A stretch of DNA of 64,000 bases, from contig DATHSW010000395.1 of NCBI GenBank assembly GCA_035463855.1, forward strand, positions 121 through 64,120. Reading direction: 5' to 3'. The DNA comes from Candidatus Deferrimicrobiaceae bacterium (lineage in GTDB: Bacteria > Methylomirabilota > Methylomirabilia > Rokubacteriales > CSP1-6). Both the position numbers and the translations under genes were made by a program. Shown here one piece after another: positions 4,595-63,892 of the stretch. Position 1 is the stretch's first letter. Every line of letters begins with the position of its first letter. The notes under the pieces were generated by a model, which saw only the letters and a list, made by a program, of their open reading frames with translations, was not told the origin of the DNA and did not search any database.

Positions 4595-4610
4595 TGCATC
4601 ACCAGTGCCA
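4595..4610 (-). promoter_or_regulatory. sigma-54 type -24/-12 promoter for the ABC exporter-ppsA operon
   Basis: Minus strand reads TGGCAC-TGGTG-ATGCA, about 60 nt upstream of ATG 4536. Confidence 0.6.
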
Positions 4611-4697
4611 GGCGGCAGCTCCATCGATTCAAGAGCTTGCCATCGTTTCCCGGGCCACCGCGGGGGCGCTCCCGCCCCGGTGTGGCCGCGGCGCCCC
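4595..4697 (-). repeat. 103-bp conserved promoter module, copy 1 of 3 (sigma-54 promoter plus upstream conserved block)
   Basis: Aligns without gaps over the same 103-bp length with 57155-57257 (high identity) and 24163-24265 (lower identity). Shared blocks are tgca(t/a)..gtgcca, cgattca, and ccgcccc..tgtggccg...cgcccc. Confidence 0.7.
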
Positions 4698-4797
4698 GCT
4701 TCTCCTTGATGGCGTTGCCCTGGCGGAACCGGGCGTCGAACCGGGGGCGTCGGGCGCGCCCGTGTTCCGCCATCTCCGCGGCCGAGCGTACCGCCTG

Positions 4798-4995
4798 CTA
4801 TGCCTTCGCGAAGTGCTCCTTGAGGTGAGCGACGAGGCGCTGGAGCTGCTCCTCGTCCGTCTTGCGCATGTATTCCCACAGCTGCCCGCAGCTCGGGCAC
4901 TGCTTGGCGTCGTTGCGGAACGTGCCGTAACGATGCAGCCCCTTCGAGAGAATCGATGCGGTTTCCATCATGTCGTACGTCGCGTTGTCGAGCAT
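4798..4995 (-). CDS. small hypothetical protein (65 aa) with one CxxC pair
   Basis: MLDNATYDMMETASILSKGLHRYGTFRNDAKQCPSCGQLWEYMRKTDEEQLQRLVAHLKEHFAKA. A GGAG ribosome-binding site lies upstream of ATG 4995 and the gene has its own -24/-12 promoter. No family recognised. Confidence 0.5.
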   Translation of the reverse strand: MLDNATYDMMETASILSKGLHRYGTFRNDAKQCPSCGQLWEYMRKTDEEQLQRLVAHLKEHFAKA

Positions 4996-5061
4996 CCTGG
5001 AGTTCTCCTTTCGGTCCGGCCGGTTTCGAAGCCCGTCGACACCCCCGGTGGCCAGAGGTGC

Positions 5062-5077
5062 AGCAAGGTTGTTGCCA
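5062..5077 (-). promoter_or_regulatory. sigma-54 type -24/-12 promoter for the 65-aa gene
   Basis: Minus strand reads TGGCAA-CAACC-TTGCT, about 65 nt upstream of ATG 4995. Confidence 0.55.
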
Positions 5078-5284
5078 GTCGTGAGCGCGCCGCAAGTCGT
5101 GAAGTCTGATCGTTCGTGCTTCGCTGAACGCGGGCTGTCGCCGCGCTTCCTGTGGAGCCCCTGCCCCGAGTGGGGCAGGCGCGGGACACGATCGGCCGCC
5201 GTCGCGAGCGCGGCCGCGCCACATCTGGCAAGGCATGTTGGCCGCTTCGGCGCATTGTGCGTGCGCGGGCGCCCGGCCGCCGGC

Positions 5285-5300
5285 TGGTGCGGGACTTGCA
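5285..5300 (+). promoter_or_regulatory. candidate sigma-54 promoter for the AOR-PIMT gene (weaker -24 box)
   Basis: TGGTGC-GGGAC-TTGCA, with GG and GC at correct spacing, 27 nt upstream of ATG 5327. Confidence 0.4.
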
Positions 5301-5326
5301 CGAGAGGCGCCACGAGGGAGGAGTAC

Positions 5327-7903
5327 ATGGCCCGAGGGTTCATGGGCAAGATCCTCAACGTTGATCTCTCCACTCGCCGGATATGGAACGAGGCCCTGGA
5401 CGAATCCCTGTGCCGACGCTTTCTGGGAGGCTACGGGCTCGGCGCGAAGCTCCTCTATGACCGGATTCCACCCGGAGTCGATGGCCTGGGCCCCGACAAT
5501 CTCCTCGGCTTCTTCACCGGACCGCTGACGGGTACACCCGCGATCGAAGGCAATCGTTTCGTCGTGGTCGCGAAGTCCCCATTGACCGGCACCTGGGGTG
5601 ACGCCAATTGCGGTGGCACCTTTGGCCCCCATCTGAAGTTCGCCGGCTACGATGGCATCCTGTTCCGGGGCATCGCTGACACACCCGTCTACCTGTTCAT
5701 CGACGATGGCATGCCGCAGTTGCGCGAGGCCGAGTTCCTGTGGGGCAAGGACACCAACGAGACGGAGGACACGCTCAAGGAAGTCCTCGGCGCGAGCGCC
5801 GGTCGCGGTGGCCGGGCGATCGAGATCGCCTCGATCGGACCGGCGGGCGAAAAACAGAGCCTGATCGCGGCCATCATCAACGACAAGGGGCGGGCGGCCG
5901 GCCGCTCCGGGCTGGGCGCGGTGATGGGCAGCAAGCGCCTGAAGGCGATCGCGGTGTCGGGCCGTGCCACGGTGCCCCTCTTCGACGCCGACCGGGTCCG
6001 GGCCCTGCGGGAGCAGTACCTGAAGCGCCACGACGGGGCCTACGAGCTCTTCGTCAAGTACGGCACCATCGGGATCACCGCCGGTTCGATCCTGAGCGGG
6101 GATGCGCCGGTGAAGAACTGGGGCGGGGTTGGCTCCGTGGATTTCCCGCGCGGCGCGGTCGCGTTCGATCCGGACACGGTGATCGCATACCAGGACCGGA
6201 AATACGGCTGCTGGCAGTGCACGATGGCGTGCGGCGGACACATGTCGGTCAAGGAGCCGGGGCCGTACCGGGGCGTGGCGCATCACAAGATCGAGTACGA
6301 GACGGCCGGGGCCTGGGGAACGATGACGCTCACCGAAGACGTTCCCGCCCTGATCAAGATCAACGAGCTGTGCAATCGCTACGGGCTCGACACGATCGCC
6401 GCCGGCTGCACGGCCGCGTTCGCCATCGAATGCTACGAGGCGGGACTCATCACCAGCGCGGATACCGATGGTCTGGAGCTCACCTGGGGCAACGCGGCCG
6501 CCCTGGTCGCCCTCGCGGAGAAGATGGGCCGGCGCGAGGGATTCGGCGAGGTGCTGGCGGACGGCGTGAAGCGCGCCGCGGAGCGGATCGGGAGCGGATC
6601 AGAAGCCTACGCCATGCACGTGCAGGGCGCAGAGGTTCCCATGCACGACCCGAAGTACCAGCCGGGGCTGGCCACCGCGTACACGATGGACGCCACTCCC
6701 GGGCGGCATACCCAGGGCCACGAGGACATGCCCCCCCTCGTGAAGAGCTGGCCGGAGCACGACAAGTACCGCTGGACCGGCAAGGGAGAGCTCCACAAGC
6801 AGTGCGTGGAAATGGTCCACGTGGTCAACGCGGCGGGCGTCTGCCTGTTCGCGTACCTCGCGTATGACTGGCAGTTCATGCCCGATTTCTTGAGCGCGGT
6901 GACCGGCTGGCCGATCGATACCGCGGAGTGTCATCTCATCGGCGAGCGCATCGCCAATATCCGCCACGCGTTCAACGTGCGCGACGGCCTCAACCCGATC
7001 CGCTTCGAGCTGCCGGCGCGCGTGATCGGCGATCCGCCGCAGACCGCGGGCAACGTGCGCGGCATCACCGTGGACGTCAGCACGCAGGTCCGCGAGTACT
7101 GCCAGGCCATGGATTGGGACCCGGAGACCGCGCGCCCCAGTGAAGCGCGGCTCCACGCTCTGGAGCTCGACGAGGTCGCGCGAGACCTGTACGCACGGCC
7201 CGAGGAGCGTGAGATCGGGCGGCCGGGAACTCGAGACTTCAGGGACGAGCGCGAACGGATGGTCGACACTCAGATCGCAGCTCGCGGCATCCGGGATCCC
7301 TGGGTGCTCCACGCCATGCGGACGGTCCCCCGTGAGCGCTTCATCCCGGCCTCGCTCGAGGACTCCGCCTACGACGACGGGCCGTTGCCGATCGGAGAGG
7401 GCCAGACGATCTCCCAGCCCTATATCGTGGCGCTGATGACCGAGGCGGTTCAGCCCCGGCCGGGGGACCGTGGCCTCGAGATCGGAACCGGGTCGGGGTA
7501 TGCCGCGGCGGTGCTCGCCACGATCGTGTCGGACGTCTACACCGTCGAGCGCGTCGGCTCCCTGGCCGATGGCGCTCGACGACACCTGGCGGCGGTCGGC
7601 TATCGCAATGTTCACGTGCTCCACGGAGACGGGACCCTCGGCTGGCCGGAGCACGCTCCCTACGACGCCATCATCGTGACGGCCGGCGGTCCCTTCGTGC
7701 CCCCGGCGCTGCTCGAGCAGCTCGCCATCGGCGGGCGCCTGGTCATGCCGGTCGGGTCGGTGCTTCGCTTTCAGCGCCTGGTTCGCGTGACCCGTATGGC
7801 GGCGGACAGCTACGCCCGCGAAGAACTCGAGGAGGTGGCCTTCGTCCCCCTGATCGGCGAGCAGGGCTGGAGTCCCCCCCGCAAGCGGGCTGGGGAGAGA
7901 TGA
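5327..7903 (+). CDS. aldehyde:ferredoxin oxidoreductase (tungsto/molybdopterin AOR family) fused in frame to a C-terminal protein-L-isoaspartate O-methyltransferase domain
   Basis: Start MARGFMGKILNVDLS follows the ribosome-binding site GGGAGGAG. AOR motifs are GGYGLGAKLLYD and DANCGGTFGPHLKFAGYDG, and a typical AOR C-terminus (REYCQAMDWDPETARP) ends near residue 620. Residues about 645-858 are PIMT (GQTISQPYIVALM, LEIGTGSGYAAAVLA, PYDAIIVTAGG). No stop codon lies between the two parts. Confidence 0.8.
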   Translation: MARGFMGKILNVDLSTRRIWNEALDESLCRRFLGGYGLGAKLLYDRIPPGVDGLGPDNLLGFFTGPLTGTPAIEGNRFVVVAKSPLTGTWGDANCGGTFGPHLKFAGYDGILFRGIADTPVYLFIDDGMPQLREAEFLWGKDTNETEDTLKEVLGASAGRGGRAIEIASIGPAGEKQSLIAAIINDKGRAAGRSGLGAVMGSKRLKAIAVSGRATVPLFDADRVRALREQYLKRHDGAYELFVKYGTIGITAGSILSGDAPVKNWGGVGSVDFPRGAVAFDPDTVIAYQDRKYGCWQCTMACGGHMSVKEPGPYRGVAHHKIEYETAGAWGTMTLTEDVPALIKINELCNRYGLDTIAAGCTAAFAIECYEAGLITSADTDGLELTWGNAAALVALAEKMGRREGFGEVLADGVKRAAERIGSGSEAYAMHVQGAEVPMHDPKYQPGLATAYTMDATPGRHTQGHEDMPPLVKSWPEHDKYRWTGKGELHKQCVEMVHVVNAAGVCLFAYLAYDWQFMPDFLSAVTGWPIDTAECHLIGERIANIRHAFNVRDGLNPIRFELPARVIGDPPQTAGNVRGITVDVSTQVREYCQAMDWDPETARPSEARLHALELDEVARDLYARPEEREIGRPGTRDFRDERERMVDTQIAARGIRDPWVLHAMRTVPRERFIPASLEDSAYDDGPLPIGEGQTISQPYIVALMTEAVQPRPGDRGLEIGTGSGYAAAVLATIVSDVYTVERVGSLADGARRHLAAVGYRNVHVLHGDGTLGWPEHAPYDAIIVTAGGPFVPPALLEQLAIGGRLVMPVGSVLRFQRLVRVTRMAADSYAREELEEVAFVPLIGEQGWSPPRKRAGER

Positions 7904-11576: not shown

Positions 11577-11592
11577 AGCAACCGAAATGCCA
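11577..11592 (-). promoter_or_regulatory. sigma-54 type -24/-12 promoter for the USP-CBS-(YbaK remnant)-SagB operon
   Basis: Minus strand reads TGGCAT-TTCGG-TTGCT, about 55 nt upstream of ATG 11524. Confidence 0.6.
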
Positions 11593-11708
11593 AGAATGGG
11601 AGTCAATGATTCCACGATGTTCGCGAGCTGGCACGCGGCCCCTGACCGAGGTGCGACGGGGCGGGAAGGCCCCACTGTAGCGGGCCGGCCCCATACCTTC
11701 CGGGCACG

Positions 11709-17046: not shown

Positions 17047-17062
17047 AGCATTGCCGGTGCCA
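17047..17062 (-). promoter_or_regulatory. sigma-54 type -24/-12 promoter for the DUF2267-sigma factor(-ATPase) operon
   Basis: Minus strand reads TGGCAC-CGGCA-ATGCT. Confidence 0.55.
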
Positions 17063-17204
17063 AGCGGGGGGTGCCGTGTTTATGGCCACTTCGCCCCGCC
17101 CCATCCCGATGTCTGCGGCATCGCTGCCCCACTGGGTCGTGACTTCCTTGGGGCGGCTCCCTGAGGCGCCTGGGTCAACTTCCCGATCCGACGTGCTTTC
17201 TGAA

Positions 17205-17220
17205 TGGCATGAGCCTTGCC
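17205..17220 (+). promoter_or_regulatory. sigma-54 type -24/-12 promoter for the Cys-rich small ORF and PIMT-like gene
   Basis: TGGCAT-GAGCC-TTGCC, 48 nt upstream of ATG 17268. It diverges from the promoter at 17047. Confidence 0.5.
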
Positions 17221-17267: not shown

Positions 17268-17432
17268 ATGGACATGTGCATCTGTGGACATTCGGAGAGG
17301 GACCATCGCCCAACGGGCGAGTGCCGTGCGGCAGGTTGCCGCTGCAAGAGCTTCGAACCGGTTCCCGAGATCCACCGCGCCCAACCCTGCCCGCCACGGC
17401 TGACGGCCAGCTCTCCCACCAACGGTCGGTAG
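17268..17432 (+). CDS. small Cys/His-rich protein, copy 1 (54 aa), unknown family
   Basis: MDMCICGHSERDHRPTGECRAAGCRCKSFEP... matches 57189-57404 at 27 of the first 31 residues. The DNA differences between the copies are mostly synonymous. Confidence 0.55.
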   Translation: MDMCICGHSERDHRPTGECRAAGCRCKSFEPVPEIHRAQPCPPRLTASSPTNGR

Positions 17433-17459: not shown

Positions 17460-18179
17460 GTGGGGCACATGAACGAGAACCGGGCACGGGGCTGGGCCGT
17501 ACCGCCACCGAAAGAATCAACGAAGAGCTCCGGGGATTTCGCGCGCGAGCGGGCCGCCAAAGTCCGCCGGCTCATCAGGCAGGGCTACGTCCAATCCGCC
17601 CGAATCAGACAGGCCTTGTTGAAGGTGCCGCGAGAGGACTTTATTCCTCGCCAGTACCGGGACTACGCCTACCTCGAGGTTCCGCTGCCCCTGCCGGGCA
17701 CGCAGGCGACGATCTCGTGTCCGCACAGCTACCCCCTATTCTACGAGCCGCTCGGTCTGGACCAAGGCCATCGGTTCCTCGAGATCGGCACCGGCTCAGG
17801 ATACGGAAGTGCCGTCGCGCGAGAGATCGTCGGTGCCGGGGGGCTGGTTGTCTCGGTTGAAATCGACCCGTTGACCTTTGCCTTCGCCAAGGCCAATCTC
17901 GAGGCCGCTGCCTATCGAGATATCGTTCTTGTGCGCGGCGACGGCGGCCTCGGCTATCCGGAGCTCAGTCCGTACGACCGGATCGCGGTGACCGCGGCCT
18001 GCTCGACGATCCCTCCCCCTCTGATCGAGCAGCTCGCGATCGGGGGGAGGCTCGTCGCGCCGATCATAGAAGAGGGAGCCCAGAACCTCCGCCTCCTCGA
18101 GAAGACCGCGGAGGGGATCAGGACGCGAGTCATCGGCGAGGTCCTGTATGTATCTCTCAGGGGCGCCTACGCCGCGTGA
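17460..18179 (+). CDS. divergent protein-L-isoaspartate O-methyltransferase-like methyltransferase
   Basis: LKVPREDFIP, SAM motif FLEIGTGSGYGSAVAREIVG, PYDRIAVTAA, EQLAIGGRLVAPI. The substrate-loop motif is altered (ATISCPHSYPLFYE instead of GQTIS-P). Confidence 0.75.
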   Translation: MGHMNENRARGWAVPPPKESTKSSGDFARERAAKVRRLIRQGYVQSARIRQALLKVPREDFIPRQYRDYAYLEVPLPLPGTQATISCPHSYPLFYEPLGLDQGHRFLEIGTGSGYGSAVAREIVGAGGLVVSVEIDPLTFAFAKANLEAAAYRDIVLVRGDGGLGYPELSPYDRIAVTAACSTIPPPLIEQLAIGGRLVAPIIEEGAQNLRLLEKTAEGIRTRVIGEVLYVSLRGAYAA

Positions 18180-19753: not shown

Positions 19754-19769
19754 AGCATTGCCTGTGCCA
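19754..19769 (-). promoter_or_regulatory. sigma-54 type -24/-12 promoter for degP/htrA
   Basis: Minus strand reads TGGCAC-AGGCA-ATGCT, about 70 nt upstream of the start. It is nearly identical to the promoter at 17047. Confidence 0.6.
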
Positions 19770-19947
19770 GCTCGCCTTCGCGGCCCGGGCGACGGGAAAC
19801 CGCTTCGCGGCCACGTTCACTTGTCGGTGCTCATGCGAGTCCATTCCGCGGCGATGGGGCGCTCGCGCCCCAGATGGGACATGAGTGCCAGCCACGGGCC
19901 CCGCGCTTCACTGCGGGCCTCGTCGAGTTACCGATGGCTTGGCGCTG

Positions 19948-19963
19948 AGGCACGGAGCTTGCT
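19948..19963 (+). promoter_or_regulatory. candidate sigma-54 promoter for sigma factor paralog 2
   Basis: AGGCAC-GGAGC-TTGCT. The GC of the -12 box lies only 16 nt before ATG 19978, which implies a near-leaderless mRNA. Confidence 0.45.
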
Positions 19964-22398: not shown

Positions 22399-22701
22399 TC
22401 ACGGGTGTGCCGTCTCGGGCACGGCTCCCGGCTTCAGAATTGCCCGTAGATCCTTCCCCATCTTGAAGAACGGCACCTTCCGAGCGGGAACGTTCACGGT
22501 GGCGCCCGTCTTCGGGTTCCGGCCGACGCGGGCGCGTCGTTGCCGAATACCGAACGTGCCCAGACCGCGCAGCTCCACGCGCTCACCCTTCGCAAGCGCC
22601 TCGGTGATCCGCTCGAAGACGGCGGTCACGACGGTGGCGCTCACTTCACCAGTGAGGCCGGAGATCCGCGCCACTTCCTGGACCAGGTCGCTCTTGTTCA
22701 C
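22399..22701 (-). CDS. IHF/HU family DNA-bending protein, paralog 1
   Basis: (V)NKSDLVQEVA..., VELRGLGTFGIRQRRARVGRNPKTGATVNVPARKVPFFKMGKDL. GTG start at 22701, placed by alignment with paralog 2. Confidence 0.85.
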   Translation of the reverse strand: MNKSDLVQEVARISGLTGEVSATVVTAVFERITEALAKGERVELRGLGTFGIRQRRARVGRNPKTGATVNVPARKVPFFKMGKDLRAILKPGAVPETAHP

Positions 22702-24162: not shown

Positions 24163-24178
24163 TGCAACGCGAGTGCCA
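24163..24178 (-). promoter_or_regulatory. sigma-54 type -24/-12 promoter for the hsp20-pcm-Zn ribbon-IHF operon
   Basis: Minus strand reads TGGCAC-TCGCG-TTGCA, a perfect match to the consensus, about 55 nt upstream of ATG 24109. Confidence 0.7.
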
Positions 24179-24265
24179 GCGCGAACCGCCGTCGATTCAG
24201 CGGGTTGCCCCGGTCGTGCCGGCGGCCGCCGAGGCACGACCGCCCCGGTGTGGCCGACCCGCCCC
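24163..24265 (-). repeat. 103-bp conserved promoter module, copy 2 of 3
   Basis: Same length and block structure as 4595-4697 and 57155-57257. In addition it carries the inverted repeat ggtcgtgcc-N12-ggcacgacc. Confidence 0.6.
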
Positions 24266-24309
24266 AGTCCCGCGACGCCGGAACCCCGATTCCGTGCGGG
24301 CTTGTGGCT

Positions 24310-24325
24310 CGGCACCTGCCTTGCA
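24310..24325 (+). promoter_or_regulatory. sigma-54 type -24/-12 promoter for the CBS / ACP-FAAL-acyltransferase / HdeD operon
   Basis: CGGCAC-CTGCC-TTGCA, 41 nt upstream of ATG 24366. It diverges from the hsp20 promoter. Confidence 0.5.
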
Positions 24326-34620: not shown

Positions 34621-34632
34621 GGTCAGCCTCCC

Positions 34633-36189: not shown

Positions 36190-36205
36190 TGCAACCGCCT
36201 TGCCA
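36190..36205 (-). promoter_or_regulatory. sigma-54 type -24/-12 promoter for the CBS-CBS-basic-basic-USP-polX-ligA(-nadE) gene string
   Basis: Minus strand reads TGGCAA-GGCGG-TTGCA, about 30 nt upstream of ATG 36159. Confidence 0.6.
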
Positions 36206-36279
36206 GATGCCGGCGGCGGTGACTGCTTGCGAACCGAGACGTTAGCCATCAGCCGCGGGTGACCTTTGGGTCTCTCCCT

Positions 36280-36291
36280 CCTCAGCTGAGG
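36280..36291. promoter_or_regulatory. perfect 12-bp palindrome CCTCAGCTGAGG, candidate activator (UAS) site
   Basis: Centred about 82 bp upstream of the GG of the promoter at 36190. A near-identical element sits at the same offset upstream of the paralogous promoter at 59932. Confidence 0.35.
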
Positions 36292-36318
36292 CGCGCGGGC
36301 CCCATGCCCCGGGCAGGG

Positions 36319-37680: not shown

Positions 37681-37696
37681 TGCAACTCGGCTGCCA
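37681..37696 (-). promoter_or_regulatory. candidate sigma-54 promoter for the malic enzyme gene
   Basis: Minus strand reads TGGCAG-CCGAG-TTGCA. The -12 GC lies only 14 nt before ATG 37668, which implies a near-leaderless mRNA. Confidence 0.45.
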
Positions 37697-37841
37697 GCCG
37701 TCGGCTCCCGCAATGGCGGCCACTTGCCCCACGCCGGCCGGGGCGCCCGTGCCCCATCTGGGGCGCGGCGCTCTCGGTCCGGGGAGGTGTCGCGGCCTCC
37801 ACGGAGAGCGCCTTGTCCGCGTTTGCCGTGGCTTGAGCGCG

Positions 37842-37857
37842 GGGCACGAAGCTTGCT
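37842..37857 (+). promoter_or_regulatory. candidate sigma-54 promoter for the lipoprotein-MlaC pair
   Basis: GGGCAC-GAAGC-TTGCT, 26 nt upstream of ATG 37883. Confidence 0.45.
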
Positions 37858-45986: not shown

Positions 45987-46002
45987 TGCAACTCCGCTGC
46001 CA
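45987..46002 (-). promoter_or_regulatory. sigma-54 type -24/-12 promoter for the IHF-CBS-cDPGS-like-hsp20-lon-ldt-ycbK operon
   Basis: Minus strand reads TGGCAG-CGGAG-TTGCA, about 28 nt upstream of ATG 45959. Confidence 0.65.
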
Positions 46003-46122
46003 CCAGCCATGCGCTCAAAAGACCGTGATCCCGTCAGGTTGCGCCGCGGGGGCACGATCCCGATGGGGCGGCTCCACCCCAGCCGGGGCGGCACGTCCCC
46101 GCCGTCGGGCCACGTCCCCAAC

Positions 46123-47555: not shown

Positions 47556-47581
47556 GTCGAACGTCCTCCCGGGCGCCGGCG

Positions 47582-47789
47582 CGGACTATTCATGAACGGC
47601 CTCGACCGAGACCGGACGGGTGGCGCCGCGGGCGCCTCCGGGGTGAGCGAGCGGAGTGGGCCCCCCGAGCCCGGTGCGCCGCTCGAAGAGCGGCGAATCC
47701 GGCGAGTGGGTGACGGAGCCGCTCGCCCCGGAGGCGCCCGCGGCGACAGGACCCGTCCGACTCGCGCTTGTCCGTTCATGAATAGTCCG
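47582..47789. repeat. 208-bp imperfect palindrome (long hairpin or cruciform element) filling an intergenic gap
   Basis: Perfect 18-bp terminal inverted repeats cggactattcatgaacgg (47582-47599) and ccgttcatgaatagtccg (47772-47789). Further paired blocks include a 20-bp one, cgccgcgggcgcctccgggg. The apical hairpin gccgctc-gaa-gagcggc at 47678-47694 sits exactly at the symmetry centre. Confidence 0.75.
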
Positions 47790-47791
47790 GG

Positions 47792-48343
47792 CTAACGCGA
47801 TCCGGGCGGCGGGGGCGGCGGCGCTCCCGCTGGCGGAGGCGGAACGCCCGGCGGGAGGGGAGCGGGGGCGGGCGGCGGGGGCGGCGACGTGTATGCCGGC
47901 TCCGAGCCGCGGGCGACCGGGATCTGGTGACCCTTGGCGTACATGCATTGCATGTACGTCATGTCATAGCGTCGCTGGACCGCGTAGCCGCTTCCCTCCG
48001 CCCGGCCCGCGCCGGCGGCGGTCCCCCCCAGCAAGCCGACGCCGGCCCCCACGGCCGCTCCGGTCGCAGGGCTGCCCGCCGCGGCGCCGAGCGCCGCGCC
48101 GGCCGCCGCGCCGACGACCGTCCCGATCGCCGCGCCGCCGACGGTGCTCGTGGCCGAGGCCTGGCTGGGCGTGATCCCGGTATGCTGCGCGGCCCACTGG
48201 CGACACACGAGGTCGTCGGTCTGGAACTGCTCGAAGCTCTTCCCCGTGCCCGGCAGCACCATCACGCTCGGCCCGCTGGGCACCGTGGCGCACCCGGCCA
48301 GCAGCACGCCGGCCACGAGCGGAGCGAGGACGGTCTTGCGCAT
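47792..48343 (-). CDS. glycine-zipper lipoprotein with proline-rich C-terminus
   Basis: Lipobox LLAGC, glycine zipper GGAAIGTVVGAAAGAALGAAAG, poly-Pro tail. ATG 48343 is preferred because of its GGAGG ribosome-binding site; an in-frame duplicate start lies at 48367. Confidence 0.65.
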   Translation of the reverse strand: MRKTVLAPLVAGVLLAGCATVPSGPSVMVLPGTGKSFEQFQTDDLVCRQWAAQHTGITPSQASATSTVGGAAIGTVVGAAAGAALGAAAGSPATGAAVGAGVGLLGGTAAGAGRAEGSGYAVQRRYDMTYMQCMYAKGHQIPVARGSEPAYTSPPPPPAPAPLPPGVPPPPAGAPPPPPPGSR

Positions 48344-48379
48344 CCTATGGCCTCCGGTCTTGCGCATCCTATGGCCTCG
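48332..48379. repeat. tandem 24-bp duplication spanning the ribosome-binding site and start codon of the lipoprotein gene
   Basis: ggtcttgcgcatcctatggcctcc followed by ggtcttgcgcatcctatggcctcg (23 of 24 identical). It produces the MRKTGGHRMRKT N-terminus in the track ORF. Confidence 0.8.
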
Positions 48380-48725
48380 CCGGAACCTTCACCCACTCTT
48401 CGGGGCAGGTCTGCACGCTCGGGTAGTACGCGCTGGCGCTCATGCAGTAGTACCAGTAGGCCGGAGGTGCCGGCGGCGGCGGGGGCGCTGCCGGCGGCTG
48501 CTCGATGTACACCGGCGGCTGCTCGATGATGACGGTCGGCGGATAGTAGTATGGCGGCGGGTACCACCAGTAAGGATGGGGCGGTCCCCAGTACGGCGGC
48601 CCCCACCACGGCCCGACCCCGACGTAGACGCCGCCGCGCCAGTGGACCGACGCCTGGCTCGGCACGGCGGCGCCGAGGATCAGGAACGCCGCGATCACCA
48701 ACGCGAGCAGGGCCGACGTCTTCAC
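48369..48725 (-). CDS. small secreted Pro/Tyr/Trp-rich protein (118 aa), hypothetical
   Basis: GTG start, signal peptide KTSALLALVIAAFLILGAAVPSQA, PYW-rich core and a C-terminal motif YWYYCMSASAYYPSVQTCPEEWVKVP. Confidence 0.5.
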   Translation of the reverse strand: MKTSALLALVIAAFLILGAAVPSQASVHWRGGVYVGVGPWWGPPYWGPPHPYWWYPPPYYYPPTVIIEQPPVYIEQPPAAPPPPPAPPAYWYYCMSASAYYPSVQTCPEEWVKVPARP

Positions 48726-48727
48726 GT

Positions 48728-49165: not shown

Positions 49166-49181
49166 AGCAAGGCGTGTGCCA
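49166..49181 (-). promoter_or_regulatory. sigma-54 type -24/-12 promoter for the secreted protein / PYW-rich / glycine-zipper cluster
   Basis: Minus strand reads TGGCAC-ACGCC-TTGCT, 22-28 nt upstream of the start. Confidence 0.6.
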
Positions 49182-49300
49182 CCGGCCGGAGCTCGGAACC
49201 CGTTGATTCCGTGCGGGGCTGGTCTCGCGCGATCAGCGCGATCCGACCGCCTGGGGCGGCGGAGTCCCATCGGCATGGGCGCGGCCGCCCCGCCACGGCT

Positions 49301-49316
49301 CGGCACCGGCCTTGCA
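49301..49316 (+). promoter_or_regulatory. candidate sigma-54 promoter for the glycoside-hydrolase-like gene
   Basis: CGGCAC-CGGCC-TTGCA, of the same form as the promoter at 24310. The -12 GC lies 22 nt before ATG 49337. Confidence 0.45.
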
Positions 49317-52045: not shown

Positions 52046-52061
52046 AGCAAGGACGGTGCCA
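52046..52061 (-). promoter_or_regulatory. sigma-54 type -24/-12 promoter for the CBS-S2P operon
   Basis: Minus strand reads TGGCAC-CGTCC-TTGCT, about 35 nt upstream of ATG 52012. Confidence 0.65.
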
Positions 52062-52229
52062 CGGGAGTGGCCGACGAATCCCGCTCTTTCCCCGCGGACC
52101 GAGCCTCTTCCGGCCGTGCGCGGTGGGGCAGCGGCTCCCCGGATGAGGCGGCGGGGCCCCGGCGCGACGGCGCCGGCGCCCTTGCGCTGGGGCGCCGGCC
52201 CTGCTATCGGTCGGTGCGGGGAGATCCTG

Positions 52230-55525: not shown

Positions 55526-55972
55526 TCACCGGCAGACCAGGACCGGGATCTTGCTGTGACTGAGCACCTTGTAGGTCTCGCTGCCGAGCACGAACCCGGA
55601 TATCCCCTTGCGCCCGTGCGAGGCCATGAAGATGAGATCGCAGCCCTTCTGGGTTGCGGTGTCGATGATGGCCTCGTACACATGATCCCGTGTCACGTGC
55701 ATCGTCTCGCAGGGGACGCCGGCGAGCCCCGCCTCGACCCTCGCCACCGCGAGATACTTCTCGGCCCGTGCCTCGGAATCCTTCGCGTACTGCTCCGGCG
55801 ATGGGGTGTAGCTCACCATGATCGGATCGACCTCGAAGACGTGGAAAGACGGCGAGACCGCGAGCGCGGTCACCTTGGCGCCGATCGCCCTGGCGAACGT
55901 GACCGCCTGCCGGATCGCCATCTCGGAGAGTGCGGAGCCATCCGTGGGGACCAGAATGTGCTTGTACATCAT
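55526..55972 (-). CDS. universal stress protein (UspA family)
   Basis: M(M)YKHILVPTDGSALSE ... ASHGRKGISGFVLGSETYKV. The start overlaps the pcm stop. Confidence 0.85.
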   Translation of the reverse strand: MMYKHILVPTDGSALSEMAIRQAVTFARAIGAKVTALAVSPSFHVFEVDPIMVSYTPSPEQYAKDSEARAEKYLAVARVEAGLAGVPCETMHVTRDHVYEAIIDTATQKGCDLIFMASHGRKGISGFVLGSETYKVLSHSKIPVLVCR

Positions 55973-56625
55973 CCCTGTCCTTCCTCGGTCCACCCCTCGG
56001 CCCCGATCAGGGGGACGAACGCCACCTCTTCGAGATCCTCGTACTCGTACTCGTGCACGTCGGCCCGGGTCACCCGCCCCAGCCGCTGGTGGCGCCCGAC
56101 CGGGCCCACCGGCATGACCAGCCGGCCCCCCAGCGCGAGCTGGCTCAGCAGCGCCTTCGGCACTCGCGGGCCCCCCGCCGTCACCACGATCGCGTCGTAC
56201 GGTGCGTGCTCCGGCCACCCCAGCGTCCCGTCCCCCGCCAGCACGTGGACGTTGCCGTACCCCAGCTCGGCCAGCCGGGCGCGGGCCGTCTCGGCCAGCT
56301 CCCCGACCCGCTCGACCGTGTATACCTCGGCCGAGATCCGCGACGGGACGGCCGCCCCATACCCCGAGCCGGTCCCGATCTCGAGCGCCCGGGCCCCCGG
56401 TTTGAGCCGGGCGGCCGCCGTCATGACCGCCACGATGTACGGTGGCGAGATGGTCTGGCCATGTCCGATCGGCAGCGGGCCGTCGTCGTAGGCGAACCGC
56501 GCCAGCGCCGCCGGGACGAACCGCTCCCGCGGAACCTCCCGCATGGCCTCCAGCACGAGCGGATCGGTGATGCCCCGCGCCTCGATCTGCGCGACGACCA
56601 TGCGCTCTCGGTCGTCGTGCGGCAT
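55969..56625 (-). CDS. pcm: protein-L-isoaspartate O-methyltransferase (second copy)
   Basis: MPHDDRERMVVAQIEARGITDP, GQTISPPYIVAVM, LEIGTGSGYGAAV, PYDAIVVTAGG. Confidence 0.9.
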   Translation of the reverse strand: MPHDDRERMVVAQIEARGITDPLVLEAMREVPRERFVPAALARFAYDDGPLPIGHGQTISPPYIVAVMTAAARLKPGARALEIGTGSGYGAAVPSRISAEVYTVERVGELAETARARLAELGYGNVHVLAGDGTLGWPEHAPYDAIVVTAGGPRVPKALLSQLALGGRLVMPVGPVGRHQRLGRVTRADVHEYEYEDLEEVAFVPLIGAEGWTEEGQG

Positions 56626-56657: not shown

Positions 56658-57101
56658 CTACTCGGCCTTGATCGGGATCGTCGTGCCCTTCGCCGCCGGC
56701 GTCTTGGGCAGCGTTACCGTCAGCAGGCCATTCTTGAACGTTGCGGCGACCTTGCTGCCATCCACCGCCACCGGGAGCCGCACGCTCCGGGTGAAGGCGC
56801 CGTACGACCGCTCCACCCGGTGATACCGCTCATCCTTCTCTTCCTTCTCCTGCCTCTTTTCTCCCTTGATCGTCAGCAGGCTCTCCTGCAGCGAGATCTG
56901 GATGTCCTTCTGGTCCATCCCCGGGACCTCGAGCTTCACGACCAGGCTGTCCTTCGTCTCCGAGATGTCCATGCTCGGAGACCACTCGCCCAGCGCGGCC
57001 GGGAACTCGTCCCACTTGAGCTCGGCGAGGCGATCGAACCAGCGATCGAGATCGCTCTTCATGCTTCCCAACCCCGTCCACGGCATCAGTCCACGCGCCA
57101 T
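56658..57101 (-). CDS. Hsp20/alpha-crystallin small heat-shock protein (second copy)
   Basis: 147 aa, highly similar to 23669-24109 at both protein and DNA level. Confidence 0.9.
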   Translation of the reverse strand: MARGLMPWTGLGSMKSDLDRWFDRLAELKWDEFPAALGEWSPSMDISETKDSLVVKLEVPGMDQKDIQISLQESLLTIKGEKRQEKEEKDERYHRVERSYGAFTRSVRLPVAVDGSKVAATFKNGLLTVTLPKTPAAKGTTIPIKAE

Positions 57102-57154
57102 GACTGCTCCTCCTTCTGATGAGAGTGTTTCGGTGAACCCCAGGCCACTGCGAC

Positions 57155-57170
57155 TGCATCACCAGTGCCA
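57155..57170 (-). promoter_or_regulatory. sigma-54 type -24/-12 promoter for the hsp20-pcm-USP operon
   Basis: Minus strand reads TGGCAC-TGGTG-ATGCA, the same 16-mer as at 4595-4610. Confidence 0.65.
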
Positions 57171-57257
57171 GCCGGGAGCTCCATGGATTCAAGAGCTTGC
57201 CATCGCCCGGCGGACGACCGCCGGGGCGCTCTCGCCCCCATGTGGCCGCGGCGCCCC
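57155..57257 (-). repeat. 103-bp conserved promoter module, copy 3 of 3
   Basis: Gap-free alignment with 4595-4697. It overlaps the 3' tail of the Cys-rich ORF. Confidence 0.7.
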
Positions 57258-57404
57258 AGCGCTCGTGAGCCCATCGTTCGACGCGGCGCGATGGCGCGGG
57301 AGGCGAATCTCCGGTTTGAAGTGTCTGCAGCGGCAGCCCGCGGCACGGCATTCGCCCGTCGGGTCGTGCTCCCGTTCCGAATGCCCACAGATGCACATGT
57401 CCAT
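57189..57404 (-). CDS. small Cys/His-rich protein, copy 2 (71 aa; conserved part is the first ~30 aa)
   Basis: MDMCICGHSEREHDPTGECRAAGCRCRHFKP.... The tail diverges from copy 1 and runs into the promoter module. Confidence 0.5.
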   Translation of the reverse strand: MDMCICGHSEREHDPTGECRAAGCRCRHFKPEIRLPRHRAASNDGLTSAGAPRPHGGESAPAVVRRAMASS

Positions 57405-59931: not shown

Positions 59932-59947
59932 TGCATCCCCCCTGCCA
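59932..59947 (-). promoter_or_regulatory. sigma-54 type -24/-12 promoter for the CBS-USP-USP-hemerythrin-DUF3175 operon
   Basis: Minus strand reads TGGCAG-GGGGG-ATGCA, about 16 nt upstream of ATG 59916. Confidence 0.55.
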
Positions 59948-60022
59948 ATCGTCGGCGGCCGCGACCCCTTTTGAAACCCGACATTGTCCGCCATGCGGCC
60001 GGGCACCGCTGAGGCTCCTCCT

Positions 60023-60034
60023 CCCCAGCTGAGG
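60023..60034. promoter_or_regulatory. near-palindrome CCCCAGCTGAGG, candidate activator (UAS) site
   Basis: Centred about 83 bp upstream of the GG of the promoter at 59932. It is the counterpart of CCTCAGCTGAGG at 36280. Confidence 0.3.
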
Positions 60035-60055
60035 CGAACACTCCCCATGCCCCGG

Positions 60056-60939: not shown

Positions 60940-62076
60940 ATGGAGCGCCCCACGTCCACCGACCGGCGGGCCGGGCTGTTGACCGTCTTCCTGTGCGGGG
61001 ACGTCATGACCGGCCGGGGCATCGACCAGGCCCTCCCGCATCCGAGCGACCCCCGCATCCACGAGCCGTTCGTCAAGGACGCCGGCCGGTACGTGGATCT
61101 GGCCGAGGCCGCGAACGGCCCGGTCCCACGGCCGGTGGACTTCTCGTACATCTGGGGCGCGGCGCTGGACGAGCTCGCCCGCGTCGCGCCGGACGCCCGC
61201 ATCGTCAACCTGGAAACCAGCATCACCCACAGTGACGGGTACTGGCCGGAGAAGGAGATCCACTACCGGATGCACCCGGACAATGTCCAGTGCCTCACCG
61301 CGGCGGGAATCGACGTGTGCGCCCTGGCGAACAACCACGTGCTGGATTTCGGCCACGCCGGGCTCCGGGAGACGCTCGAAACGCTGGCGCGGGTCGGATT
61401 GAGGACCGCGGGAGCCGGGCGCACCCTGGCCGAAGCCCGCGCGCCGGCGGTGGTGGAGGTCTCCGGAAAGGGCCGGCTGGTGGTCTTCGGATTCGGAGAC
61501 GAGTCGAGTGGCATTCCCTCGAGCTGGGCCGCGGTGGGGGGCCGGCCGGGGATCGACTTCTTGCCCGACCTGTCGGAGGCAACGGCGGCCGGGATCGTGG
61601 ACCGGGTCCGGGAGGTGAAGCGAGCGCGGGACATCGTCGTCGCGTCCATCCACTGGGGCGGCAACTGGGGCTACGACGTTCCCCCGGCGCAACAGCGCTT
61701 CGCGCGCCGGCTGCTCGATGGCGGCGTCGATATCGTCCACGGTCATTCCTCCCATCATGTCCGGCCGATCGAGATGTACCGGGGAAAGCTCATCCTCTAC
61801 GGCTGCGGCGATTTTCTCAACGACTACGAAGGCATCACCGGCTACGAGGAGTTCCGGGACGACCTCACGCTGATGTACTTCCCGACGCTGCGGCCGGAGA
61901 CCGGCTGCCTCGAGAGCCTTCGGATGACGCCGATGCAGATCCGGAATCTCAGAGCCAACCGCGCCACCCCGGGCGATGCCGCGTGGCTCGGGAGCATGCT
62001 CGGCCGGATAAGCCAGCCACTCGGGGCGCGCGTCGAGCTCACCGCCGACGGCACTCTGGCGCTCCGCCCCGCGTGA
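60940..62076 (+). CDS. CapA/PGA_cap family metallophosphatase-like protein
   Basis: 378 aa with FLCGDVMTGRGID, ANNHVLDFG, HWGGNWGY, HGHSSHH. Confidence 0.8.
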   Translation: MERPTSTDRRAGLLTVFLCGDVMTGRGIDQALPHPSDPRIHEPFVKDAGRYVDLAEAANGPVPRPVDFSYIWGAALDELARVAPDARIVNLETSITHSDGYWPEKEIHYRMHPDNVQCLTAAGIDVCALANNHVLDFGHAGLRETLETLARVGLRTAGAGRTLAEARAPAVVEVSGKGRLVVFGFGDESSGIPSSWAAVGGRPGIDFLPDLSEATAAGIVDRVREVKRARDIVVASIHWGGNWGYDVPPAQQRFARRLLDGGVDIVHGHSSHHVRPIEMYRGKLILYGCGDFLNDYEGITGYEEFRDDLTLMYFPTLRPETGCLESLRMTPMQIRNLRANRATPGDAAWLGSMLGRISQPLGARVELTADGTLALRPA

Positions 62077-62134
62077 GGGCGGCCGCCAGGGTCGGCGCCC
62101 AGGACCGACCCTGCCCCCGGCGGCGTGGTGGCCC

Positions 62135-62545
62135 TCAGAGTGCGCTGGGCTCCCAGACGTGGATCCGGACCGCGGCGGCTCGCTTGCCGTCGGGCTCGAG
62201 GGTCACGATCACCCAGTCTCCTGGCTTCACTTGCCAGCCAGGGAGCGCGCTCTCGACGAAATCTCCCACCCAGCCACTCGGCGCCGGCCCGGTCGCGCGC
62301 TTGAGCCGCATGAACTGGGTCGAGGGGCCCACGCCGAAGGTGCGGCGCTCGACCTGGGTCACGCCCTCCTTGACCTGCCAGGGCCCCATGCCCTCGACGA
62401 CGATCGTCCCGGCGGCCTGATCCACGGCGACGACCGTGCCCGAGTACTTGCCCTCCCGGGCGTCGCTCCAGCCGGGAGCCGCTGGAGCGGCGACCGCGAC
62501 GATGGTAAGGGCCGCCATCCAGATACTCCTCGCCATGCTGTTCAT
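62135..62545 (-). CDS. secreted protein of unknown function (paralog of 48728-49138)
   Basis: Signal peptide followed by KYSGTVVAVDQAAGTIVVEGMGPWQVKEGVTQVERRT...GWVGDFVESALPGWQVKPGDW. Confidence 0.6.
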   Translation of the reverse strand: MNSMARSIWMAALTIVAVAAPAAPGWSDAREGKYSGTVVAVDQAAGTIVVEGMGPWQVKEGVTQVERRTFGVGPSTQFMRLKRATGPAPSGWVGDFVESALPGWQVKPGDWVIVTLEPDGKRAAAVRIHVWEPSAL

Positions 62546-62566
62546 AGTCCCTCCCGTGTCCCTGGC

Positions 62567-62860
62567 TCAGCTCGGGAGCACGATCTCGAACCGCTCCCAG
62601 GGCATGGCCGTCCACGTCTCGGTCTGCCCGTGGCCGTACGAGCGGATGATCATCACCACCTTGGCGGCGATGGTCTCGTCGGGGGCCTCGAAGATGTCCA
62701 TGTAGTCATAGGGCCCCAGGATCGCGTAGTTGGCCACCCACTTCACCTGGGGGCAGTCGCGCCGGACGTGATCGGCCACCACTTTCTCCAGACGCTTCAG
62801 CTCGCCCGGAGTCTTCACGGCCTCGGGCGTGAGTCGGGTCAGCACCACGTAAGTCGGCAT
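62567..62860 (-). CDS. GYD domain protein
   Basis: 97 aa: MPTYVVLTRLTPEAV ... WVANYAILGPYDYMDIFEAPD. Confidence 0.8.
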   Translation of the reverse strand: MPTYVVLTRLTPEAVKTPGELKRLEKVVADHVRRDCPQVKWVANYAILGPYDYMDIFEAPDETIAAKVVMIIRSYGHGQTETWTAMPWERFEIVLPS

Positions 62861-62879
62861 GGGATTCCTCCTTTGGTCG

Positions 62880-63812
62880 TCATGATGCGGCGAGGTCCGA
62901 CGTGAGAACCCAAGCCGGCCGGTCCTGGGCGCTCTCTACGAGCTCGAATACCCGTCGAGGCGTTCCCAGGTCGGACCACACCATTCGCGGCATCGCCGCC
63001 ACCGCCAGGAACGGTGGACACGGCTCGAGGACCGCGCGGGAGAAATTGGCTTTGGGCATCAAGGTATAGGCCTGGTGAAGGGCCCAGGCCTCCTCGTCGG
63101 TTCCGAGAAAGGCATCCGCGCGGGTCAGTCGCCTATCGACTTCCGGAACGGCCTCCCGGCCGGCGCGGAGGAAGGCGGCGGCCTTGCCCACGAGGACGAA
63201 GGTATTCCAGAGACAGCCGGCTTCCAGGCAGATCCGGGCCTTCTCCTCGGATGGCTTCTCCCAGAAGCGGCGGATCTCCCAGATCCGTCGATCATCCAGC
63301 GACTCCAGCGGTCTTCCGAGCTCGATCCAGCCATATTCGACCTCAGGTCCGGTCGCGTGAGCGCCGAGCAGCACGAGCCGGTCCGGATGCTCCTCGACCC
63401 ACGCAGCGATCTGCGTGACATGCGCCATGAACATGGCCGGCTCCGACACGAAATGATCGGAGGGAAAGACCGCGACGGTCGCGCCGGGATCCTGCCGCGC
63501 GACCCAATGAAGCGGGAAGAGGATCCCGGCCGCGGTGCCTCGGTCGGCTGGTTGGACCAGCAGCGATGGGGGATCCGGTCCTGCCCATTGCTCGGCGAAA
63601 TACGGGGCATGACTGCGCAAGGTGACCACCGCGGTCCGGACCGCCGGGATCCCGAGCGCCACGCGGTCGAGGGTCTGGCGCAGCAGCGTACGGTCCCCGA
63701 GAACCGGGACATACTGCTTCGGGCGGTCGTCGCCGCAGATCCGCTGGGCCAGCGCCCTCAGCCTCACGCCTCCGCCCCCGGCGAGCACGACACCCCACAA
63801 GTGATTGTCCAT
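62880..63812 (-). CDS. sugar-phosphate nucleotidyltransferase (mannose-1-phosphate guanylyltransferase-like)
   Basis: 310 aa from ATG 63812 with WGVVLAGGGGVRL and FPSDHF. The track ORF's N-terminal extension crosses the promoter. Confidence 0.7.
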   Translation of the reverse strand: MDNHLWGVVLAGGGGVRLRALAQRICGDDRPKQYVPVLGDRTLLRQTLDRVALGIPAVRTAVVTLRSHAPYFAEQWAGPDPPSLLVQPADRGTAAGILFPLHWVARQDPGATVAVFPSDHFVSEPAMFMAHVTQIAAWVEEHPDRLVLLGAHATGPEVEYGWIELGRPLESLDDRRIWEIRRFWEKPSEEKARICLEAGCLWNTFVLVGKAAAFLRAGREAVPEVDRRLTRADAFLGTDEEAWALHQAYTLMPKANFSRAVLEPCPPFLAVAAMPRMVWSDLGTPRRVFELVESAQDRPAWVLTSDLAAS

Positions 63813-63876
63813 CTCGCGTTCCCCCGCTGCGGACGAGCACCGTAGGACTGCTGGTGAAGAAGCCGGAGAGCGCGCG

Positions 63877-63892
63877 AGCATCGCCCGTGCCA
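63877..63892 (-). promoter_or_regulatory. sigma-54 type -24/-12 promoter for the nucleotidyltransferase-GYD-secreted protein operon
   Basis: Minus strand reads TGGCAC-GGGCG-ATGCT, about 65 nt upstream of ATG 63812. Confidence 0.6.

Follow-up and report, generated by a model that had tools for sequence, protein, structure and literature searches.

Why should one 64-kb stretch of bacterial DNA carry the same type of promoter in front of most of its transcription units, and what might read these promoters? The stretch, referred to here as the window, comprises 64,000 nt of contig DATHSW010000395.1 (assembly GCA_035463855.1) of a Candidatus Deferrimicrobiaceae bacterium placed among the Rokubacteriales, and the promoters are of the -24/-12 type recognised by sigma-54. 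In our assessment, the window is quite likely a sigma-54 "survival island", in which about 20 units under -24/-12 promoters would be governed through a common enhancer by a dedicated activator. Everything that sigma-54 control leads one to expect at the level of sequence is found here: consensus geometry, intergenic position with orientation toward the genes, conservation of the motifs while their flanks diverge, and a phased enhancer.

The closest named genomes to the window are metagenome-assembled genomes (MAGs) of Candidatus Methylomirabilota / Rokuibacteriota (Lon identity 82% and 80%), and the G+C content of 70% is consistent with the 66-71% reported for Rokubacteria (PMC5712423). Public assemblies yielded no exact match to the Hsp20 of the window. 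The gene map of the window was built independently from codon-usage log-odds (88% coding, 12% intergenic), and gene families were assigned by Pfam, some of them by NCBIfam. Comparisons were made with loci of relatives, labelled L001-L166. L001 is the fetched part of a 1.2-Mb contig (ena:ERZ25039547:contig_8485) belonging to a close relative (Lon 91% identical), whose island is syntenic with the window but rearranged. A further 80 metagenome loci were picked solely by similarity to the Hsp20 protein of the window (52-94% identity) and provided 75 usable upstream regions. L164-L166 are three additional Lon-centred loci, while L163 is the locus of an activator that was used as a query.

Predicted sigma-54 promoters in the window

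The strict motif, TGGCA-N6-(T/A)TGC(A/T), i.e. TGGCANNNNNNWTGCW, occurs 14 times in the window, always on the minus strand. In 100 dinucleotide-preserving shuffles 0.13 matches were expected, and no shuffle contained more than one. An earlier note on this DNA, made from the letters alone, had claimed about twenty sigma-54 promoters against a background of well under one strict match per 64 kb, and both statements hold. Its list of strict matches contained exactly these 14 sites plus one at 17205 (+) which, since TGGCATGAGCCTTGCC ends in C, is only near-strict. The five sites to which it had ascribed a degenerate -24 box are all present on the plus strand, at 5285 (TGGTGC), 19948 (AGGCAC), 24310 (CGGCAC), 37842 (GGGCAC) and 49301 (CGGCAC), and the complete set thus consists of 14 strict and 6 near matches, i.e. 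20 predicted promoters. The two weak candidates that it had added, at 57459 and 60910, were not supported: both fall below the 8-bit cutoff of a sigma-54 weight matrix trained on metagenome relatives alone, and neither has a palindrome of at least 9 bits (of the type described below) nearby.

A core motif defined independently of that note (the textbook TGGCA-N6-TTGC, allowing up to one mismatch outside the invariant GG and GC) gave 22 matches, as compared with a mean of 6.0 in first-order Markov shuffles. Nineteen of them lie in the intergenic 12% of the window and three in the genic 88%, and every one of the 19 intergenic matches faces a gene on the same strand, in agreement with the orientation proposed in the note. 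The matrix trained on relatives recovers 19 of the 20 sites and adds none facing any of the eight units that lack one. The information profile of the sites peaks at TGGCA and TTGC(A/T), and the GG-N10-GC geometry is exact within the TGGCAC-N5-TTGCW consensus. Sites are present in front of 20 of the 28 complete transcription units, so that the phrase "almost every operon", used in the note, was somewhat generous.

Twelve of the predicted promoters form six divergent pairs (-/+): 5062/5285, 17047/17205, 19754/19948, 24163/24310, 37681/37842 and 49166/49301. The -24 box is a perfect TGGCA on the minus-strand partner in all six pairs and degenerate on the plus-strand partner in five (CGGCAC, AGGCAC, GGGCAC or TGGTGC), the exception being 17205, with an intact -24 box (TGGCAT) and a deviation solely at the last -12 base (TTGCC).

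A common candidate enhancer

The upstream regions were aligned on the -24 box and 13 distinct regions were submitted to palindrome-constrained de novo expectation-maximisation. All 13 contain an 18-bp dyad, TGGGGC-N6-GCCCCA, with variants of the form TGnGGC...GCCnCA. This palindrome, a feature that had gone unseen in the earlier note, is a newly defined candidate enhancer; to our knowledge it corresponds to no known activator site. The window contains 15 palindromes of at least 13 bits, all of them intergenic, against 0.6 expected. In L001, which was never part of the training, there are four of at least 12 bits (at 5630, 7367, 16729 and 18810), each beside or between sigma-54 sites, as compared with only three in the other 81 loci then fetched. 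Modules, i.e. combinations of a sigma-54 site with an upstream palindrome, number 19 in the window and 0.03 in the shuffles.

The arrangement of the palindromes is highly regular. In every promoter region of the window their centres lie 53-96 nt ahead of the -24 GG, and tandem copies are usual: among 130 unique modules, 78% have their two best palindromes 19-21 bp apart, whereas 5.5% would be expected. The distances between the palindrome centre and the GG (147 modules) cluster at 53-54, 62-64, 72-75, 81-85, 91-96, 104-106 and 114-118 nt, with a best-fit period of 10.4-10.5 bp. The periodicity is significant in the 19 modules of the window alone (Rayleigh p = 0.0015), as well as in the 68 unique modules that are left when the dominant 79-87 class is removed (p = 1e-11), and it is not detected in control sigma-54-like sites without a good palindrome (p = 0.3). 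With steps of about 10.4 bp, palindrome and promoter face the same side of the helix. If the GG is placed at about -25, the centre of the enhancer falls approximately 80-120 nt upstream of the inferred start, and the median gap between the -12 box and the start codon is 55 nt (145 modules). An enhancer at this distance, phased to the same face, is the textbook layout of NtrC-family activators, which loop to the sigma-54 holoenzyme. In six intergenic regions the palindromes lie between two divergent promoters, which implies that one enhancer serves both directions.

Between enhancer and core the DNA is enriched in A/T (0.51-0.55 at positions -30..-26 and -20..-16 from the TGG, as compared with about 0.22 farther upstream). 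Such A/T-rich patches lie 16-30 nt upstream of each TGG, for example at 4624-4640, 24192-24208 and 57184-57200. In 16 of 129 modules, mainly of the Hsp20 class, the sequence CAA-N4-YTGAAT(C) occupies a fixed position. Taking into account that two genes for proteins resembling the beta subunit of integration host factor (IHF) belong to the predicted regulon (22399-22701 and 45657-45965), IHF-assisted looping appears plausible.

The possibility that the palindromes are terminators was considered and rejected: six lie between divergent genes, they are phased with the promoter, and no T-run was seen by eye (no terminator scan was run). The window contains no Rfam families and no tRNAs.

A dedicated regulon or a general sigma factor

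The density of sites had been explained in the earlier note in two ways: by a sigma-54 regulon island, or by a lineage that employs sigma-54 as a general stress sigma factor. Modules occur at 2.97 per 10 kb in the window, 3.13 in L001 and 2.34 in the Hsp20-picked loci. The corresponding values are 0.06 for other Rokubacteria/Methylomirabilota DNA (180 kb), zero for DNA of other high-GC phyla and 0.005 for shuffles. Their density is thus about 50 times greater in the islands than in other Rokubacteria DNA. Taken together with the single common palindrome, this contrast points to a regulon dedicated to the islands and favours the first of the two readings.

Should sigma-54 instead be a general or housekeeping stress factor that works with many activators, the density in the window would merely reflect its use throughout the genome. 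Elsewhere in Rokubacteria there are indeed sigma-54-like sites that lack the island palindrome, for example a canonical promoter (TGGCATGATTGATGCA) before a type IV pilin gene in a Rokubacteria MAG (L079, 7636-7785) and a site before a substrate-binding-protein gene in L163, and activator genes are common in the phylum. However, in the window all 20 promoters are associated with one palindrome at fixed tandem spacing and phasing, modules are some 50-fold rarer in the 180 kb of other DNA, and an Hsp20-Lon pair situated outside an island has no site. We therefore regard the general-factor explanation as unlikely.

The latter pair (L165, 9588-12409) is 88% identical to that of the window, resides in an ordinary metabolic neighbourhood and carries neither a sigma-54 site nor a palindrome, which indicates that Lon belongs to the regulon in some members of the clade and not in others. 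The pilin promoter of L079 has a different palindrome, TGTGGAGCAGACTCCACA, 134 nt upstream.

Conservation and duplication of the promoters

In the Hsp20-picked loci a sigma-54 site is present in 64 of the 75 upstream regions, and in 61 of these 64 it lies 41-70 nt from the start codon. The palindrome is found as well in 51 of the 75, at a near-constant 81-84 nt from the GG. When the Hsp20 upstream regions are stacked, the conserved blocks are the distal palindrome, a proximal variant (CGAGGC-N6-GCCTCG), the A/T patch and the -24 and -12 boxes, while the flanks diverge. The 16-mer at 24163 is identical before Hsp20 orthologs in L001, L083, L084, L086 and L087.

Conservation extends to other members of the predicted regulon. 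In L001, L164 and L166 the 16-mers are the same or nearly so at the orthologous promoters of the Lon operon (before its IHF-like gene), a CBS gene, DUF4015, the 125-aa hypothetical gene and MlaC. The 16-mer at 45987 is unchanged in L001 and has variants in L164 and L166, the promoters at 49166 and 49301 are conserved in L001 and L166, the core at 52046 is identical in L001, and the ortholog of 37842 in L164 and L166 reads AGGCAC...CTTGCT and is accompanied by the palindrome. The NTP-transferase orthologs carry the module five times in the window, L001 and L083-L162 together.

Repetition of the motif might also be mainly a by-product of copied USP, CBS, Hsp20 and PIMT (protein-isoaspartate methyltransferase) cassettes, in which case the number of sites would overstate independent selection. 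Such copying has evidently occurred in places: the promoters at 4595 and 57155 are near-identical from enhancer to leader and have different genes downstream, while those at 36190 and 59932 stand before paralogous 186-aa CBS genes and have upstream sequence in common. Most promoters, however, resemble each other at the motif positions only, and several of the predicted targets are unrelated genes present as single copies (DegP, malic enzyme, DUF4015, NTP-transferase, the Lon operon). Furthermore, motifs and spacing persist down to about 54% protein identity while the flanks diverge, and copying could not produce 10.4-bp phasing across spacing classes. Duplication as the main explanation is thus distinctly improbable.

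Comparison of 4540-4720 with 57100-57280 shows that the promoter of the ABC-MacB-PpsA unit is a near-copy of the Hsp20 promoter at 57155; the resemblance takes in the enhancer, the A/T patch, an identical 16-mer and a portion of the leader. It seems that a promoter of the regulon was duplicated before a different operon.

Sigma-54 machinery and the proposed activator

As reported in the earlier note, the window encodes neither RpoN nor a bacterial enhancer-binding protein: Pfam found no Sigma54_activat domain and tblastn no match to either protein. The tblastn queries were E. coli RpoN and the central domain of NtrC, searched against all loci then fetched. They likewise detected nothing in L001 or in the 516 kb of Hsp20-picked loci, and RpoN was absent from the Rokubacteria loci scanned (L001-L005, the other Methylomirabilota loci and L083-L162). 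Matches to the activator were confined to L027 and to loci from outside the Rokubacteria, and the single locus with RpoN was one of Methylacidiphilum. The gene tables of L164-L166 list no Sigma54_activat domain and no RpoN family, and that of L163 none besides the queried activator. As regards the genome under study, the search for rpoN covered the window, i.e. 64,000 of the 64,152 bp of the contig, and support for the presence of the machinery therefore stands at the phylum level only.

Since no activator gene was detected in the window, in L001, or in the Hsp20-picked and Lon-centred loci, the activator would be unlinked to the island. A cognate AAA+ activator encoded with its targets or close to them, as in many NtrC-family regulons, was not found in the island loci. 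Such linkage is common but not obligatory, so that its absence makes the activator harder to identify and does not affect the mechanism.

Suitable proteins exist in the phylum. In L027, a locus from a Methylomirabilota MAG, there is a gene for a REC-AAA+-HTH protein whose GAFTGA motif is intact (ELFGHEKGAFTGA); the protein is matched by more than 120 protein clusters at 71-94% identity; some of the clusters are named, several of them as [quoted passage not shown] (NCBI). Activators that bear the GAFTGA motif work only with sigma-54. The conserved neighbourhood of this family comprises ComM, a substrate-binding protein and a sensor kinase. As a candidate for the island regulator the family was rejected: the best palindrome nearby is a single 12.4-bit match and none reaches 13 bits, so it is probably not the regulator in question. 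A full-text literature search combining Rokubacteria or Methylomirabilota with sigma-54 or rpoN returned nothing relevant, and the paper of Becraft et al. does not mention sigma factors.

The lack of rpoN in the scanned loci, and of an activator gene in approximately 690 kb of island DNA, could suggest that TGGCAC-N5-TTGCW or the palindrome is the operator of an ordinary transcription factor acting at sigma-70-type promoters. An operator of this kind would hardly agree with the sigma-54 consensus at every informative position, with an invariant GG-N10-GC and an asymmetric, gene-oriented arrangement, nor would its enhancer have the position and phasing of the classical sigma-54 layout. Because of this exact consensus, its asymmetry and orientation, and the GAFTGA activators encoded in the phylum, a reader other than sigma-54 is very unlikely. 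The probability that the motifs are an artefact of chance or of the 70% G+C composition is negligible: although G/C-only patterns have a high background (GGGGC-N6-GCCCC with one mismatch, 32 seen against 20 expected) and GG-N10-GC by itself is not enriched in the window, which shows that the signal is the full consensus, the excess of strict motifs and of modules over the shuffles, the intergenic bias, orientation, conservation and phasing all speak against it.

Several observations weigh against interpretation of the window as a sigma-54 island and have to be set beside those in its favour. Neither rpoN nor an activator gene is present in the approximately 690 kb of island DNA, and eight of the 28 transcription units have no site. 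A large part of the metagenome modules belongs to orthologous Hsp20 promoters and does not represent independent events, and two pairs of promoters (4595/57155 and 36190/59932) are recent duplicates. The window itself supplied the training sequences for the palindrome matrix, a circularity mitigated by the held-out validation. Finally, CAA-N4-YTGAAT(C) agrees with the IHF consensus (WATCAA-N4-TTR) with one mismatch, which is a resemblance only.

Proposed mechanism and regulon content

The sequence itself shows the motifs with their statistics, geometry and conservation, as well as the gene content; sigma-54 dependence, the identity and number of the activators, the inducing signal and the looping of the DNA are inferred. 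The most likely mechanism would involve one dedicated enhancer-binding protein of the NtrC family (AAA+), encoded outside the island. Its dimers would occupy the tandem palindromes and then oligomerise, contact the closed sigma-54 holoenzyme by looping of the DNA, probably aided by the A/T-rich IHF-like site just upstream of the -24 box, and use ATP to open the promoter. This mechanism is the canonical one of sigma-54 and enhancer-binding proteins and is already known; the regulon and the enhancer are new.

The output would be a coordinated induction of functions for protein protection and repair (Hsp20, PIMT, Lon, DegP), small nucleotide-sensing proteins (USP, CBS), DNA repair and NAD supply (PolX-LigA-NadE), nucleoid proteins (IHF-like) and two sigma-70 paralogs, giving rise to a sigma cascade; in relatives it would extend to a ribosome hibernation factor and DksA-type proteins. 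Pfam bore out the gene families that the earlier note had named as targets. Module targets in relatives include the ribosome hibernation factor (S30AE; HPF), DksA/TraR-type zinc-finger proteins, OmpA-like proteins, a HAD-HerA-like ATPase, PGK, PFOR and citrate synthase. With its theme of protection, repair, metabolic down-shift and reprogramming of transcription and translation, the regulon looks like a stress or dormancy programme. The two sigma-70 paralogs (RpoD/RpoS/SigB-like) are located directly behind predicted sigma-54 promoters, at 17047 (DUF2267-sigma-70) and 19948 (sigma-70), which implies a cascade from sigma-54 to the paralogs.

Predicted promoters and enhancers along the window

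The predicted regulon of the window is made up of the following units, read from left to right; scores of palindromes are given in bits, and "strict" denotes a match to the strict motif. The promoter TGGCACTGGTGATGCA at 4595..4610 (-; strict) precedes ABC ATPase-MacB-PpsA and has tandem palindromes at 4662-4679 (8.0 bits) and 4681-4698 (15.2 bits), which are 19 bp apart and have their centres 62 and 81 nt from the GG. A divergent pair follows, consisting of TGGCAACAACCTTGCT (5062..5077, -; strict), before a 65-aa hypothetical gene, and the probable promoter TGGTGCGGGACTTGCA (5285..5300, +; degenerate -24 box), before genes for a fusion of aldehyde:ferredoxin oxidoreductase with PIMT, an MFS protein and a GNAT protein; tandem palindromes at 5151..5188 are common to both. 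The site at 5285 is the weakest of the 20, being missed both by the core motif with one mismatch and by the weight matrix of the relatives. USP-CBS is preceded by TGGCATTTCGGTTGCT (11577..11592, -; strict), with tandem palindromes at 11657..11693 (11.0 and 14.1 bits, 19 bp apart).

Two divergent pairs serve the sigma-70 paralogs and their neighbours. The promoter TGGCACCGGCAATGCT (17047..17062, -; strict) stands before DUF2267, an RpoD/RpoS-like sigma-70 paralog and a P-type ATPase, and the near-strict TGGCATGAGCCTTGCC (17205..17220, +) before a small Cys-rich open reading frame (ORF) and a PIMT gene, with the palindrome TGCGGCATCGCTGCCCCA (17114..17131; 14.6 bits) common to both. The next pair comprises TGGCACAGGCAATGCT (19754..19769, -; strict), before DegP/HtrA, and AGGCACGGAGCTTGCT (19948..19963, +), before the second sigma-70 paralog and an M28 peptidase; between them lies the perfect palindrome TGGGGCGCTCGCGCCCCA (19855..19872; 17.6 bits). 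The Hsp20-PIMT-hypothetical-IHF-like unit is headed by TGGCACTCGCGTTGCA (24163..24178, -; strict) and shares tandem palindromes at 24230..24266 (8.9 and 17.2 bits) with CGGCACCTGCCTTGCA (24310..24325, +), which precedes CBS, an acyl-AMP ligase/acyltransferase and DUF308.

The small Cys-rich ORF after the site at 17205 (17268-17429, +) has a paralog at 57404 to about 57192 (-), and both start MDMCICGHSER(D/E)H.PTGECRAAGCRC. The second copy, downstream of the weak site at 57459, overlaps the palindromes that belong to the Hsp20 promoter at 57155. A search of NCBIfam, made with the copy at 17268-17429, gave no match.

The promoter TGGCAAGGCGGTTGCA (36190..36205, -; strict), with tandem palindromes at 36267..36304 (7.8 and 16.1 bits, 20 bp apart), precedes CBS-CBS and probably also a small ORF followed by USP-PolX-LigA-NadE. 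The small ORF is conserved and lies in an apparent gap at 34621-35106, where the sequence matches a 71-aa gene of L001 (15874-16089); with it, CBS-CBS-small ORF-USP-PolX-LigA-NadE is probably a single operon of about 8 kb starting from 36190. Malic enzyme is preceded by TGGCAGCCGAGTTGCA (37681..37696, -; strict) and hyp86-MlaC by GGGCACGAAGCTTGCT (37842..37857, +), the two having in common the tandem palindromes at 37739..37776 (15.9 and 5.4 bits).

The unit IHF-like-CBS-P-loop-Hsp20-Lon-L,D-transpeptidase-M15 stands behind TGGCAGCGGAGTTGCA (45987..46002, -; strict), with tandem palindromes at 46064..46101 (16.9 and 8.6 bits, 20 bp apart). The P-loop protein of this operon (43855-45201, -; 448 aa) lies between CBS and Hsp20 also in the Lon operons of L001, L164 and L166; it matched no Pfam family above threshold and nothing in NCBIfam. 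The palindrome TGGGGCGGCGGAGTCCCA (49252..49269; 16.1 bits) is common to TGGCACACGCCTTGCT (49166..49181, -; strict), before the 125-aa hypothetical gene, and CGGCACCGGCCTTGCA (49301..49316, +), before DUF4015. A CBS gene and an M50/CBS protease gene follow TGGCACCGTCCTTGCT (52046..52061, -; strict; tandem palindromes at 52124..52161, 15.1 and 14.2 bits, 20 bp apart).

Toward the right end, the 16-mer TGGCACTGGTGATGCA occurs a second time at 57155..57170 (-; strict), before Hsp20-PIMT-USP and with tandem palindromes at 57222..57258 (3.7 and 18.7 bits, 19 bp apart). CBS-USP-USP-hemerythrin-DUF3175 is preceded by TGGCAGGGGGGATGCA (59932..59947, -; strict) and the tandem palindromes at 60010..60047 (15.0 and 9.6 bits, 20 bp apart), and NTP-transferase-hyp93-hyp136 by TGGCACGGGCGATGCT (63877..63892, -; strict). 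The palindrome of the latter, TGAGGCAGGGACGCCACA (63977..63994; 15.5 bits), was outside the training set and constitutes a further held-out validation.

Relation to known systems

The island shares many features with classical sigma-54 systems of the NtrC family (glnAp2/NtrC, or nifH/NifA with IHF): the TGGCAC-N5-TTGCW core, tandem inverted repeats approximately 80-120 nt upstream of the start, phasing to the same face, an A/T-rich, possibly IHF-like patch between enhancer and core, and divergent promoters on one enhancer. It differs in that its activator is not linked to the targets and in that one type of enhancer serves at least 20 units in 64 kb, a density far above that of typical single-activator regulons.

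In Borrelia burgdorferi, Rrp2 and RpoN activate rpoS; there, the activator acts without an enhancer site and the cascade constitutes the principal output. Sigma-54 promoters are likewise predicted before two sigma-70 paralogs in the window, but here the sigma genes are two of about 20 direct targets. The heat-shock protease gene lonD of Myxococcus xanthus is described as being directly controlled by an NtrC-like activator, HsfB/HsfA (Ueki and Inouye 2002, as cited in PMC9109919). Lon and Hsp20 of the window similarly reside in an operon behind a predicted sigma-54 promoter, although the phylum is a different one and the Rokubacteria regulon is much larger, with USP, CBS, PIMT and DNA-repair genes.

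The functional theme recalls the DevR/DosR regulon of Mycobacterium tuberculosis, which includes USPs, HspX, nitroreductases, CtpF and a CBS-domain protein. DosR is a LuxR-type response regulator that acts at sigma-70-type promoters through a different box, and the palindrome of the island differs from the Dev box. The same families are present in the window by Pfam, which amounts to a functional analogy and not to membership, since the promoters of the window are of the -24/-12 type and do not qualify it as part of a DosR regulon. Tandem binding boxes are described as an architectural hallmark of the DevR/DosR regulon (PMC3177182). The terms universal stress protein, hspX, nitroreductase and ctpF occur in that paper, whereas "CBS domain" does not.

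Rokubacteria are globally distributed, uncultured bacteria with large genomes. The dormancy-like theme of the predicted regulon bears on a published conjecture about this group (Becraft et al.). Tentatively, and with somewhat less than even confidence, we suggest a phylum-wide sigma-54 dormancy programme, in which one unlinked activator would act through TGGGGC-N6-GCCCCA on many tens of operons, as a functional counterpart of DosR that relies on another transcription machinery. Its operons would comprise those for ribosome hibernation, DksA, Hsp20, USP, CBS, PIMT, Lon, DNA repair, nucleoid proteins and secondary sigma-70 factors. If this is true, the programme could underlie the suspected dormancy of an abundant, never-cultured soil group. 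Promoter and enhancer together provide a compact, sequence-defined handle on the dormancy idea: the joint motif can be scanned for in any MAG or metatranscriptome, where it would list the regulon and show when it is switched on, and the palindrome may serve as bait in the search for the activator and for the signal to which it responds. Unusual features are the density of about 20 promoters in 64 kb, the size and coherence of the regulon, its dormancy-like theme, the six divergent pairs that each share one enhancer and the clear phasing, and the island consequently offers natural data well suited to studying how enhancer-promoter communication depends on geometry.

Further observations

A 1172-nt stretch (47556-48727) that separates a USP gene from the 125-aa hypothetical gene contains no ORF that passed the codon test and has no tblastx match in the fetched loci and no Rfam match; the flanking genes are adjacent in L001. 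The fusion gene behind the probable promoter at 5285 (5327-7903, +) encodes an aldehyde:ferredoxin oxidoreductase with PIMT as its C-terminal part, and three more PIMT genes are present in the window, at 17625-18179, 22964-23608 and 55969-56625.

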